DNA of 49,892 nt from Elusimicrobiota bacterium (lineage in GTDB: Bacteria; Elusimicrobiota; Elusimicrobia; UBA1565), in NCBI GenBank assembly GCA_043827405.1, contig JBDRPD010000024.1, positions 1 to 49,892 of the forward strand, read 5' to 3'. Of this stretch, positions 42,001 to 48,000 are shown piece by piece. How positions within the stretch are numbered: position 1 is the first letter of the stretch; every line of letters starts with the position of its first letter. The position numbers are program-made.

Positions 42001-45000
42001 CCGTACAGCGCCGGGATCATCGCCGCGAGCAGCCCCGCCCAGGCGGCGGCGAACAGCGGCTTGCCGACGGCGCTGTTCGTATACGCCAGCACGGCGGCCG
42101 GCGGCAGGCAGGCGCAGGCGCAGCCCAGCAGAATCTTGAACGCGGCATGTCCCTTGGCCAGCAAGCGCGCGAACCAGGCGGCGAAGGCGATCAGGATCAC
42201 GGTGAACAGCGGGTGCCAAGCCAGCGCTTTGCTCCATGCAAACAGCCCGCAATGAACTTCCAGCTGCGCCAGCGGCGAATCCGGCGGCAGCGGCGGAAAA
42301 TCAGCGGGCTTGCCGGTGTAGAATAAAACGGCGGTCGCGAGATAGACGGCGTAGATAACCGCGGCCTCATACAGCGCGCCCTCTTCCCGCTCCATGCGGT
42401 CAAGAGCGCGGCCGGGCCGCGCGAGCATGTCGAGCGCCAGACGCAGCGCGGATTTAAGCGGCGGCTTCTGCAAGCGAATCCTCCTCGACGGCGATTCGCC
42501 GCGTGTCCTGCTCGACCACGCGGGCGCCCCATAGGCAGAACAAACCGGCGAGACCGAGAAACAGCATGGCGCCGATCAGCCCCAGCCGCAGGCCCCAAAG
42601 GTCGGAGACGATCCCGATCAGGGTGGGGCTGAGCGCGTCGCCCAAAGCGTGAATCACGAAAATATTGGCCGCGAAGGCCATGGAGCGCATCGGCGCGCTG
42701 GTAACGTTCACGATAACGCCGTTAAGCGGTCCCATATTCAGAAAAACCAGCACCTCGGTCACGAACAGCGCCGTCAAAGTAAGCGGATACCAGCTCGACA
42801 GGATCGCGATCACGCCCGCGGGCAGCGCCAGGATGAGCCCCGCCCCGGAGACAATAAAGTACGCTTTGCCGGTGACCTTGAGCAAACGATCCCCCAGCCA
42901 GCCGCCGGCCAAAGAGCCGATAAGCCCGGCGACTACCGTGATGCCGCCGAAGAGGGTCCCCGCCTGGGCGACGTTAAGGCCCCAGTAGCGGTTCAAGAAC
43001 GTCGGCATCCAGACCGCCAGACCGCCGAGCGCGAAGGTCAGGGCGGCCATAGCCAAGGTGCTGGCGACGTAGCTGGGTATCCGGTATAGCGATAAGTAAT
43101 CCCGGAAGCGCGGCAGCGGCTTGCCGCTTGCCGCGGACGGCCGGCGCGGGTCGCGCAGCCTATAGGCCAAACACGCCAGCAGCAGCCCCGGCAGCCCGAC
43201 GACCATAAACGCCGTGCGCCAGCCGTAATGGTAGCCGATCCAGCCGCCGCAAATATATCCCAGCGCGCTGCCGACCGGGATGGCCATGGAGAAGAACGCC
43301 AGCACGCGCCCGCGCTTCTCCGCGGTAAAGTGTTCGGCGACGAAGGACGGCGACACGCTGCCGTAGCCGGATTCGCCGATGCCGACGGCGGCCCGCGCCG
43401 CGAACAGCTGGCCGTAGCCGCGGGCCAGGCCGGAGGCGAAAGTCGCCACGCTCCAGATGCCGATACCGTAGGCGATCCAGTTCTTGCGGGTGCTGCGATC
43501 CGCCCAGTAGCCGATAAACGGCGCCGCGCACATATAGACGATCATGAAGGCCGAAGCCAGCGCTCCGAGTTCGCGGTCCGACAGCTGGAGGTCCGTCTTG
43601 ATCAGCGGCAGCAGCGAATACAGCACCTGCCGGTCGAGGTAGTTGATCAGGTTGATGGTAAACAGCAGGCCGAGGACGTAGTACGCCGTTTGTTTCACCG
43701 GCGCCGTGCTCATTTTCCGATGCAGAAGCGGGAGAATATCTCGGCGAGAACGGCCTCCGGGGCGTCGGTGCCGAGAATCTCATCGAGGGCGCCCAGGGCG
43801 CGGCGCAGGCTTGCGGCGGCGAGCTCGCCGCGGCGTTCGTCTTCGCCCAGAACTGTCCGCGCCGCCGCCATGCCGTCGCGGGCCGCGCACAGCAGCGCGT
43901 AGTGCCGCTCCGAGGCGACGAGGACCTCGTCCTGCTCCGCTCCGCCGCCGTTCTCCAAAGCGCGCCGGATGCTGCGCACCAGCTCCGGCAGGCCGGCCCC
44001 GGTGCGCGCCGAAATCTCCAGCGCCGGCACGCCGCCGCCGATATGGCGCGGCGTCAGGCCGGCCGGCTCACGATCGCATTTATTGAGCACGGCGATCGCG
44101 CCGCGCTCGCTTGTCCGCGTCCGGGCGCTCAGGTCGCGCAGGACCTCCGCGCGCCGGCCGGGCTTAACGGTGCGGTCAAGCACCCAGAGCGCGAGGTCGG
44201 CACGCTCGAGCTCCCGCCGGGTCCGCCGCTGTCCTTCCCGTTCTACGGCGTTCTTCGCGCGCGCGAGCAGGCCCGCCGTATCGACGAGCACGGCGGCATA
44301 GCCGGCGATTTCCGCGCTTTCTTCGATCGTGTCGCGCGTGGTGCCGGGACGCGCCGACACGATCGCGCGCTCGCGCCCGAGCAGCGCGTTGAGCAGAGTG
44401 GACTTACCGGCGTTGGGGCGGCCGACGATGGCGATGCGCGCGCCCCGCTTGACGAGCCGTCCGCGGCGGTGGCTGTCCGTCAGCCGGCACAAGGCCGCGT
44501 GCAGCTCGTCGACGCGGCGGCCGGCTTCCCGCACGGGAAGCAGCGGGATATCCTCTTCCGGGTGATCGAGCTCAGCCTCGATCTGCGCCGTCAGCTCGAT
44601 AAGAGTCGAGCGCAGCGCCGCGATGCGCCGCGACAATCCCCCCGCGAGCTGCGAGACGGCGGCTCGGTGCGCGCGCTCGGTCTGCGCGGAAATCAGCTCG
44701 CAGACGGCCTCGGCCTGCGCGAGATCGAGCTTGCCGTTGAGGTAGGCCCGCTGGGTAAACTCGCCGGGCCGCGCCAGCCGCGCGCCGGCGTCCCGGGCCA
44801 AGCGCAGCAGGCGTTCCAGAACGTACGGCGAGCCGTGCGCCGAAATCTCGATCATCTCCTCGCCCGTATAAGACGCCGCCGGAGGGAAGTAGGTCGCCAG
44901 AACCTGATCGATGCGCTCGGCGCCGTCCGCGGCCCAGCACAAAGTAGCGCGCCGGGGCCGCAGCTCGCCTGGGAGCTGGAGAAAGCGCTGCGCGGCGGCG

Positions 45001-48000
45001 CGGGCGCCGCGGCCGCTCATGCGGACCAAGCCGATCGCCCCTTTGCCGGGCGGCGTGGCCGTCGCCGTGATCAGGCCGCCGACGAGGACTTCGCCGCGCA
45101 CTAGCCGCCGCGCCGCGGTTTGATGACGACCTTGCGCCAGACGCCCTCGCCCTCGGACGCGGTCACCACGTCCGGATGATCCGCCAAAGTGCGATGGATC
45201 AGGCGGCGCATCGAGGCCTCCAATGGATCGAAGCGGTAGCTGCTGCCCGTCTGCTTGACCTTTTCCACCGCGCTGCGCGCCTCGTCAAGGATTTTGTCTT
45301 CGATTTTCTTCCAGTACCCTTCAGTCTCGACCTGGATCGCGGTCGGAACGCCGGTCTTGCGCCCGACGATGACGGTCACCAAAAACTGCAGCGCCTCGAT
45401 GGTCCGCCCGCCCTTGCCGACCAGCAGCGGGGAGTCGTCGCTCACGACTTCGGCCATGACGCGGGACTGCTTCTCGTCCCAGGCGCAGCGGACGCTGGGC
45501 TTCGCCAGCTGGGCCAGCTTCAGTATCTCGCCCAAGACTTCCGCGGTGACCGCACAGGCCTTGGCGGAGTCGATCTGCGGCTCCTCGCTCTTGCGCGTCG
45601 GACGCGGCTTGGCCTTGGGCCGCGGCTTGTCGTTTCTGCGGGGCGCGGGGCGCGCCGGCTCCCGCCGGACCGCGGACCCGCTCTTCGCCTGGCGTTCCGG
45701 CTGCGGCGACGGCTTCGCCTGCGGCTTGTCCTCGGCCGATCCCTCCGACCAAATTTTTTCACGCAGCCGCACCTCAGCGAGCTTGGCGCCGATGCCCAGA
45801 AAGCCGGCGGAGCCTTCGCTGAGAACTTCGACCTCCACTTGATCGCGCCGCAGGCCGAGCTCCGTCAAGCCGTTCTCCACCGCGATCGTCACCGTCTTGC
45901 CCTCCACTTTAAGCTCTTTCATAGTAAAGTCCTCCTTAGTGTTAAATCGCCGCCTAGGCTCCCATCTGCCTCTTGATGATGAGCTGCTGGGCGAAACTTA
46001 GAATACTATTGGTCAGCCAGTACAGCACCAGGCCGGCCGGGAAGTTCAGGAACATAAAGGTGAAGATGATGGGCATGAACTGCATCATCTTGGCCTGGTT
46101 CGGATCGCCGCCCGCCACCGGCGTCATTTTGTTCTGCAGGAACATGATGCCGCCCATGACGACCGGCAGCACGTAGTACGGATCGGCCGCGGAGAGGTCC
46201 TGCACCCACAGCATCCACGGGGCGCCGTGCAGCTCCCAGGCGTTGCGCAGCATATTGAACAGCGCGATGAATATCGGCATCTGGGCCAGCATCGGCAGGC
46301 AGCCCCCGAGGGGATTCACGTTGTGGCGCTTGTAGAGCGCCATCATCTCCTGGTTGAGGCGCTGCGGGTTGCCCTTGAACTTCTGCTGCAGCTTGGCCTG
46401 CTCGGGAGCGACCTTCTTCATCATGACCATGGACTTCGTGCTCTTGTAGGTGAGCGGGAACATGATGATCTGCAGGCAGATGGTCAGCAGGATGATCGAC
46501 CACCCCCAGTTGTTCGTCCACGAATGGAAAGTGCTCAAAACATACAGCGTGAAGCGGCCCAGGCGGTGGAACCAGCCGAAGGAGACCGAGCGCTCCAAGC
46601 CCTGCCCGATGGCTTTTAACCGCGAGTAACCCTTGGGGCCGAAGTAGAAGGGTATCTCGAGCTTGACCGTTTCCCCGGGTCCGATGTCGAGCGCCGATGC
46701 CTCGGCGTTGAGCCATGGGGCGAGCGCCTCGCCCCGCTTCGTCTGTCCCAGCCACGATTTCGTCATCACCATCTTCTTGCGGGTACCGTGCTCAAAGCGG
46801 CCGAAATGGCTGTCCGCGGGGAAGATCGCGCTTAGGAAGTAGCGGTTCTGGATGCCGAGCCAGCGCCACTCCCCTTCATGCGCCACGGTCTCCTCTTCGT
46901 TTTTAAACTCCACGAATTCATCGCTGCGGCCCGCCTTTTCAGACGGCAGCAGGGCGACCGCTTGCCACTGCGCGGAGTTTTCCTTCTGCTCGGTGGGGAC
47001 CGTACCGAGCCCGGGCCCCAGCGCCAGCCGGAAAGCCGGCAGGCGCAGAGGCTCCTTCCCGGGGTTGGTGATCGTGAGGCGCAGGCTGTTGATCGAATGC
47101 GGCGACTGAAACAAATACTCCTTGCGAATTTGCGCGCCGGAAGCATGGACCGCGTCGAAAGCCGGCCAGTTTTTGTCGCCGCCGGCCCGCGTGAAGCGCA
47201 GTTCAGGCCAGGTCGCGAAGAAGCCGGGATAGGGATCGGCGATGAGATCGACCGGGCCCAAGGGGCCGGGGTAGCTGTAGCTGACGATGGCGGCGCCCAG
47301 CGGCTGAATCATGAGCTCCATGCCGCCGATATTGAACGTCATCGCGCCGTCGAGACCGCCGGCGGCGGGAGCGGGATCGGGCTGCGCGGGAGACAGCGAG
47401 GGCGTTACCGCGCGGGCCGGACCGCCCGCGGCGGTTGTCGGCGCCGAGCGCTCACCCGCCGCGGCCGGCGGCGCCGGCTCACGCACCGGCCGCGGCCGTT
47501 TCTTCTCAACTAAGGTAAACCAGCCGATGTAGACCAGAACGGAAAGAAAGATCGCGAGAAAAAAATTCTTATCCATATCGCTCCATCGACTCCGTCGGGT
47601 AAAGTTAAACGGCAGACGGCGGCCTGACGGGATCATTGCCGCCCGGATCGAACGGATGGCAGCGCAGCAGCCGGCGGAGGATCATCGGAACAGCGTGTCG
47701 GAGTTCGAAACGCTCCAGCGACTCAACGGCATAAGCGGAGCAAGTCGGCCGAAAACGGCAGCTCGGTGGAAGTAGGACGGCCCTGATCGGGCGTAAAATT
47801 CCAAGAATTCCCAACAGCAGTTTACGCATGCTCGATGATTCCCGCCTTGCGGCAAAGATCCAGAAACGACTCTTCTGCGTCGCGCAGCCCCTGCCAACTA
47901 CAGCCGGGCCGCGGGTATACGGTTAAGTCCGTCTCCGGACGCAACCGATGCGTATTCTTTCGAAACGACTCCCGCAGCAGGCGCTTAACCCTGTTGCGAC

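Follow-up and report, generated by a model that had tools for sequence, protein, structure and literature searches.

The window, a stretch of 49,892 nucleotides from the 4.33-Mb genome of an Elusimicrobiota bacterium (G000), contains an rnpA-yidC-jag-mnmE...mnmG gene cluster on its reverse strand. It comprises rnpA (47822..48193; TIGR00188, 71.6 bits) and the genes for the insertase YidC (45954..47636; above the cut-offs of TIGR03592 and TIGR03593), a Jag/EloR RNA-binding protein (45101..45922; NF041568, 144.2 bits, cut-off 145), the tRNA-modifying GTPase MnmE (43710..45101), and MnmG (39931..41766; TIGR00136, 726 bits). Also encoded on this strand are an MFS transporter, for which the family models stayed below their cut-offs (42454..43713), and an RsmG-like methyltransferase (39296..39958; TIGR00138, 89.5 bits, cut-off 99.5).

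The genome-wide survey's note had pointed to mnmE as the best Der-like stretch of a genome without the GTPase Der (EngA), which is correct. The protein is an ordinary MnmE, matching TIGR00450 over its full length (residues 15-463; 294.3 bits, cut-off 252.6), and nothing unusual was seen in it. It scores only 115.2 bits against the Der model TIGR03594, which has a cut-off of 306.7. The similarity lies in a single G domain in one stretch (43953..44522, reverse strand; 113.7 bits, model positions 146-347 of 432), and the tandem G domains of Der were not found. As such, mnmE is a look-alike and not part of the loss; the finding is the absence of Der, which is confirmed to be real.

None of the 15 TIGR03594 matches in G000 exceeded the cut-off, with controls positive in 10/10 bacteria, and the KH-like domain of the Der C-terminus (PF14714) gave no match at E ≤ 10. 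A phylum-specific profile, built from 30 Elusimicrobiota Der proteins, recovered single G domains only, and nothing for its C-terminal part (best E 1.6). A split or fragmentary Der was ruled out, as no pieces were present among six-frame ORFs of at least 50 aa. The note's list of nine TRAFAC-type GTPases is incomplete, omitting EF-G, LepA, and EF-Tu, which G000 also encodes. All 13 G-domain-type hits at E < 0.01 were assigned, leaving no spare G-domain protein. The divergent replacement that the note had allowed for is therefore excluded for GTPases: no other GTPase took the place of Der in G000.

Among Der-bearing relatives, der is located in the arrangement hflX-(pgsA)-der-plsY-gpsA in 24/25 genomes. 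At this site in G000 (contig C10), the stop codon of hflX (9342-9344) and the ATG of plsY (9348) are 3 bp apart. The empty site lies in the middle of a 16-kb contig and is spanned by a contig of a second study as well. The 34 plsY loci of Der-less genomes had hflX directly upstream (12), only a pgsA-like gene in between (19), a pgsA-plsY pair at a contig end (1), or a rearranged neighborhood (2). No der was found at any of 80 named hflX loci, where plsY was adjacent in 26 and pgsA-plsY in 8, while 42 showed other arrangements and 4 were too short. Three genes filling the gap were inspected as candidate replacements and rejected, being unrelated and on the opposite strand; at the der site of L198, the opposite strand carries a gene for a trypsin-like protein.

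The absence extends well beyond G000. In agreement with the note, none of the 32 sampled genomes of the order (G000 included) had a Der over the cut-off, and the loss is wider than this one order. Der was over the TIGR03594 cut-off in 0/187 genomes from 19 families, versus 101/114 genomes from 15 Der-bearing families, where it was missed in 13 genomes. It was lacking in 155 of the 161 sampled genomes of the class and in 10 families of other classes. The absence is a true deletion and not the gap in metagenome bins that the note had considered. Three single-contig genomes (G066, G265, and G284) and the complete genome of the cultured Elusimicrobium posterum Dip510 also lack der. Our literature search found no paper on der loss in Elusimicrobiota.

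The note had further proposed a joint reduction of housekeeping GTPases, in which the lack of Der was combined with that of EngB, RimM, and the signal recognition particle (SRP). Neither EngB nor RimM was detected in G000 by NCBIfam models or phylum-built profiles. The engB site (contig C79:4627-5649) holds an unrelated gene, and at the rimM site (contig C12), khpA (ending at 12965) is followed by trmD (frame from 12961). As a joint loss, however, the claim is not supported. EngB is patchy, being present in 2/3 genomes of the same family and 8/13 of the order by a model that exceeded its cut-off in only 6/10 control bacteria, and RimM eroded stepwise without tracking Der. Ffh was lacking in 80/80 genomes, Der-bearing ones included, and PF02978 was found in 0/5; this is the SRP loss already in print for Elusimicrobia (PMC7987157), which is phylum-wide and predates the der losses. 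Era was missing or broken in 4/5 genomes. No real match to uL30 was obtained in 80 genomes, the single weak one (E 0.007) lying inside a 421-aa frame; uS5 and uL15 adjoin in G000.

The ribosome core of Der-less genomes looks ordinary. uL1 was found in all 54 Der-less genomes among the 80 searched, the one miss being a genome with Der, and bL9 in 77/80, including 51/54 Der-less. In the 23S rRNAs, which were retrieved with a DNA query, the region 2093-2196 (H76-78) measures 104-105 nt, the E. coli length, in all 19 Der-less sequences covering it, and the helices contacting Der are equally conserved between 12 Der-bearing and 15-19 Der-less rRNAs. An rRNA signature of the loss was rejected: 14 columns separate the groups loosely and none is fixed, and in four of these the E. 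coli letter is that of most Der-less rows. The number of relaxed 23S positions, 35 versus 9 between the groups, is confounded by unequal sampling. Shared substitutions in HflX and uL1 were dismissed as well (4 and 1 weak columns, respectively, inconsistent across losses). Thus, no compensating change was found in the 23S helices, HflX, or uL1. The rplA/rpoB operon is split in these genomes. Among assembly factors, Obg was over the cut-off in G000 and 5/5 other genomes (3 of them Der-less), and RsfS and DEAD-box helicases were each found in 5/5. G000 encodes Obg, RsfS, HflX, BipA, and LepA, and RimP is kept in Der-less Elusimicrobiota. RbgA does not qualify as a substitute, with 0/5 genomes over the cut-off, Der-bearing ones included, nor could a link to RlmE be made, as TlyA is the only FtsJ-type protein of G000.

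Most of these genomes are metagenome bins, and Der was missed even in some members of Der-bearing families; an artefact of incomplete bins, or of a Der sequence that had diverged beyond the reach of the model, would thus have been conceivable. We give this next to no credence, since der sites are empty inside contigs, closed genomes lack the gene, the phylum profile is negative, and uL1 was recovered from 79/80 of the same genomes. For the neighborhood of G000 and for E. posterum, it is refuted outright. The loss of other factors would fit a scenario in which der disappeared as a side effect of streamlined genomes or of a slow symbiotic lifestyle, but this is very improbable: Der-less genomes range from 1.0 to 4.6 Mb, Der is retained in 77/89 genomes of family f14, the smallest sampled (mostly 1-2 Mb), and symbionts in general keep der (PMC12641178). 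A single clade of Der-less genomes was rejected (AU test, p 2e-75). If regain is allowed, the parsimony minimum on the tree is four changes, which would suit one ancient loss followed by four regains by horizontal transfer. Such a history is improbable, however, as der occupies one and the same position, just ahead of plsY, in each of the four Der-bearing groups (24/25 genomes). Moreover, their Der, with the normal two G domains and KH-like domain, forms a tree that repeats the species split and the branching order inside families f6 and f12 (no outgroup), and PMC12641178 gives der as ancestral in bacteria. Synteny and trees show that der was vertically inherited in Elusimicrobiota within a miaA-hflX-pgsA-der-plsY-gpsA cluster and was repeatedly deleted outright. 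As the Der-less genomes form no single clade and Der and species phylogenies agree, we infer about 6-8 losses, a count obtained without an outgroup.

With der deleted and no replacement GTPase, the 50S subunit would be finished without a Der step in these bacteria; such Der-independent assembly is implied only by the viable culture of E. posterum, whose complete genome has no der. Obg is not a plain stand-in, as ObgE alone showed no activity in an E. coli reconstitution in which EngA alone gave slow activity (PMC13278734). Given the canonical rRNA core, this failure of ObgE suggests that something must substitute, possibly an RNA, or a protein other than a GTPase, that was present from early in the history of the phylum and occupies or bypasses the Der site. 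This would make der redundant and produce the same, repeated loss pattern. We consider such a replacement rather unlikely, as no candidate emerged: der sites are empty or hold unrelated genes, and the proteome scan, which covered G000, left no spare G-domain protein. Rather, 50S maturation probably proceeds by an Obg/RsfS route on a permissive phylum background. Obg, together with RsfS, would then be the sole late 50S placeholder left, with assistance from DEAD-box helicases and perhaps from HflX, and the functional core would fold without Der at a tolerable rate. That the permissive state arose early in the phylum, and not as a separate fix per lineage, is suggested by the repeated der loss, by EngB, RimM, and Era having been lost or having decayed independently, and by the absence of uL30 and Ffh across the phylum. 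Lack of uL30 is not sufficient, since most of the bacteria without it (145/995; PMC3353972) must keep Der. More tentatively, an early event, either the advent of an unrecognised factor or an alteration of an r-protein or of rRNA away from the Der footprint, may have opened a 50S route with Obg as the only assembly GTPase and a canonical peptidyl-transferase core, and so have released der, engB, era, and rimM one by one.

Clean deletion of der has thus affected many Elusimicrobiota, among them groundwater forms with large genomes and a cultured species, yet their ribosome core looks ordinary and the L1 stalk is intact. This makes them a testable case of an alternative route to large subunit completion. 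The gene was lost repeatedly within a phylum whose genomes are of normal size, and close relatives with and without der are at hand. As the E. posterum strain is deposited (DSM 104965 = JCM 31828), what Der is strictly needed for becomes directly testable, which also bears on minimal ribosome reconstitution.

Der is essential in both E. coli and B. subtilis (PMC12641178), and the peptidyl-transferase center is a joint target of EngA and ObgE (bioRxiv 10.64898/2026.02.15.706057). Compared to the pathways of E. coli (YihA, EngA, ObgE) and B. subtilis (RbgA, YphC, YsxC), G000 lacks Der, EngB, and RbgA, and Obg alone is left of their late 50S GTPases. The note's description of Der as universal was too strong: der, a GTDB BAC120 marker, is present in 99.2% of non-CPR genomes, but in only 38% of CPR genomes (PMC12641178). 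Its absence by lineage in CPR/Patescibacteria is known (PMC12641178; Brown et al. 2015 as cited there), and these earlier exceptions are mostly uncultured cells with altered ribosomes. Four CPR classes without der keep obgE (PMC12641178), as do G000 and 3/3 other Der-less genomes tested here; rimM mostly absent and uL30 absent throughout are further likenesses (PMC9297842). In contrast to CPR, Elusimicrobiota are a non-CPR phylum with a cultured species, RsfS and RimP are kept, and the 4.33 Mb of G000 compares with CPR-type genomes of 0.5-1.5 Mb. While in CPR the absence of der is accompanied by that of uL1 or H78, Der-less Elusimicrobiota retain uL1, bL9 (51/54), and H78.

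The gene at 43710-45101 (- strand) of the window encodes MnmE. Its product scores 294.3 bits against TIGR00450 (cut-off 252.6) over residues 15-463, and its neighborhood is the customary rnpA-yidC-jag-mnmE...mnmG-rsmG. The model for Der (EngA), TIGR03594, gives this protein 115 bits, through its single G domain, which agrees with the genome-wide survey's note, where MnmE was named as the best Der-like stretch of the genome. None of the 15 TIGR03594 matches in this genome (4.33 Mb, 108 contigs, 97.97% complete) exceeded the cut-off of 306.7 bits, while 10/10 control bacteria were positive. 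The KH-like domain of Der (PF14714) had no match there at E<=10, a profile derived from 30 of the phylum's own Der proteins matched single G domains only, and the best E value for the C-terminal 95 columns of that profile was 1.6.

The place where der would be expected could also be inspected. In Der-bearing relatives, the order miaA-hflX-(pgsA-like)-der-plsY-gpsA was found in 24 of the 25 genomes fetched, covering 15 families; G013 is the exception, G003 carries about 1.5 kb extra ahead of plsY, and the cluster of G181 is split across two contigs. In the genome under study, the hflX stop codon (contig C10, 9342-9344) is followed 3 bp on by the plsY ATG, with the contig end 7 kb away. This stretch also lies within a contig of what is probably the source run, and a contig of another study reads through the junction, with 25 differences over 541 bases. 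With three negative models and an empty site, the reported absence of Der from this genome is confirmed. Among 34 plsY loci of Der-less genomes, hflX lay directly upstream in 12, only a pgsA-like gene intervened in 19, pgsA-plsY stood at a contig end in 1, and 2 were rearranged. In an Avelusimicrobium locus (L198:5232-6293), the hflX-plsY gap is filled by a gene for a trypsin-like protease on the opposite strand.

There is no spare GTPase in the genome: a broad G-domain profile gave 13 matches at E<0.01 among all 46,019 six-frame ORFs of at least 50 aa, and all are accounted for. Era, MnmE, HflX, Obg, FeoB, IF2, LepA, YchF, and RsgA were confirmed by NCBIfam models, and the remaining matches are, judging by motif or context, presumably EF-G, BipA, a MeaB-like protein, and an ABC ATPase. 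EF-Tu is interrupted by contig ends. Elsewhere in the window, 48417-49628 (+) encodes a signal-peptide-like protein of 403 aa that contains an internal repeat and matches no NCBIfam model.

Across Elusimicrobiota, Der was above the cut-off in 101 of 301 sampled genomes: 0/187 in 19 families versus 101/114 in 15 families, counts that are descriptive, as the feature itself defines the two groups. Two of the 13 misses within Der-bearing families are split matches; of the others, just one comes from a genome with a completeness of 90% or more. Der was found in 6/161 genomes of the class and 0/32 of the order, in line with the order-wide absence described earlier. Elusimicrobium posterum Dip510 (deposited as DSM 104965 = JCM 31828; PMC12700296), whose chromosome is complete, has neither Der nor its KH-like domain, and hflX lies 66 bp ahead of plsY; it was not tallied separately, as it may be among the 301.

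Species trees were built from RpoB, part of RpoC, and uL1 (71 genomes with FastTree, 41 with IQ-TREE; no outgroup). Two sister pairings emerge from these: the Der-bearing families f6+f12 with the Der-less f10 (f7 branching outside them), and f19 with f16. A single Der-less group (18 rows held together, 27 genomes), fixed from the Der survey ahead of tree building, was rejected (p-AU 2e-75). If regain is allowed, a minimum of 4 changes is needed; a loss-only history takes 6-8, the count varying with how open forks are read. In the tree of 29 Der proteins, likewise without outgroup, the species split recurs (f15, f19, and f12+f6 on one side, f24 and the f14 group on the other; support 90/90), as does the species branching order within f6+f12. 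As the Der tree repeats the species split, and the position of der is common to Der-bearing genomes, vertical descent with repeated deletion is favored.

The survey's note had also listed EngB, RimM, and SRP as missing, and these were searched in a panel of 80 genomes (54 Der-less and 26 Der-bearing, picked for quality and family spread; uL1 control detected in 79/80). EngB is indeed absent from the genome under study, but present in 2/3 genomes of its family and 8/13 of its order. It passed the cut-off in 32/80 panel genomes (16/54 Der-less, 16/26 Der-bearing), in a search that just 6/10 control bacteria passed. Since, in the genome under study, the site syntenic with engB of G142 is occupied by an unrelated 341-aa gene, and EngB is patchy in family and order, its loss is local. 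RimM was matched in 30/80 genomes, 10 near full length and 20 by the C-terminal part alone (for example, L384:2031-2381 and L386:2096-2371), and in none of the order (0/13), f4, or f5. Nine short forms (L384-L392) all lie between rpsP/khpA and trmD, and the three scanned are PRC barrels only. The phylum thus shows a series from full to half to none; in the genome under study, khpA abuts trmD. Although PF01782, the model searched earlier, covers RimM's other domain and could overlook PRC-barrel remnants, neither RimM domain is found in this genome, and its absence stands. Ffh was found in none of the 80 genomes, a phylum-wide SRP loss that is already in print (PMC7987157).

EngA contacts H68, H75, H80, H82, H88, H89, H92, H93, and uL1 (PMC4245960), and serves as a placeholder that comes between YihA and ObgE (bioRxiv 10.64898/2026.02.15.706057). 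Our alignment to E. coli rrlH, with approximate helix bounds, took in 31 Elusimicrobiota 23S sequences, 12 from Der-bearing and 19 from Der-less genomes, of which several are partial. H69-71, H80, and H89-93 are canonical, H76-78 is 104-105 nt long in all Der-less rows, and the two groups are similar in their identity to E. coli. bL9 is present in 51/54 Der-less genomes, no consistent shared change was found in HflX (54 sequences) or uL1 (61 sequences), RbgA was absent in 5/5 genomes, and the FtsJ-family protein of the genome under study is TlyA. This genome keeps Obg, RsfS, RimP, RbfA, Era, RsgA, HflX, and three DEAD-box-like helicases. Independently of Der, Era is missing in 3/5 genomes and broken in 1/5; it was not found in G284, G122, or G020, and its patchiness in Elusimicrobiota has been noted (PMC10582724).

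Several further features were seen. The era gene of E. posterum (G301:C1:707682-708490; genome of L228) consists of two pieces and contains in-frame stops. uL30 had no credible match in the 80 panel genomes, and uS5 and uL15 adjoin (L354:7596-8524, which is C60:63595-64523 of the genome under study). Intron-like 23S insertions (L311-L314, L330, L328) occur in H89 of four f6 genomes (~360-380 nt), in H69 of G003 (~700 nt), and at H71 of G004 (~260 nt). In the Der-bearing G061 (L309), the region of H68, a Der contact, measures 29 nt versus 71 in E. coli, possibly an assembly gap. In the genome under study, rplK-rplA (C47:17235-18438) lies apart from rplJ-rplL-rpoB (C26:5650-14790), which follows the rRNA genes; no RpoB-sized frame appeared at the corresponding place in any of the 60 rplA-flanking stretches fetched.

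der has thus been deleted, and repeatedly so. Obg with RsfS is the sole late 50S GTPase system remaining in the genome under study, and the route replacing Der appears to run through it. As E. coli ribosomes failed to assemble with ObgE alone (PMC13278734), a permissive change beyond a simple hand-over to Obg would be required, and since the losses recur across the phylum, it is probably older than they are. It was not found among the 23S helices, bL9, HflX, uL1, RbgA, FtsJ-family, and G-domain proteins examined. EngA is reported to have a second site, at the tunnel exit, that clashes with SRP (bioRxiv 10.64898/2026.02.15.706057); one may speculate that earlier SRP loss took away one reason for keeping Der.

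No published account of Der loss in Elusimicrobiota was found in a search that left most subscription literature outside, nor is it mentioned in the available text of PMC11257099 or PMC9297842. The dataset of PMC12641178 includes four Elusimicrobiota, unnamed in its main text, and the absence may lie unremarked in its data. der loss as such is already known from Patescibacteria (CPR), 38% of which retain the gene versus 99.2% of non-CPR genomes (PMC12641178). The new part is its occurrence in Elusimicrobiota with an ordinary-looking ribosome, noteworthy because the ribosome is ordinary in appearance and a culture is available. CPR classes without der retain obgE (PMC12641178), and the genome under study, likewise without der, keeps Obg.
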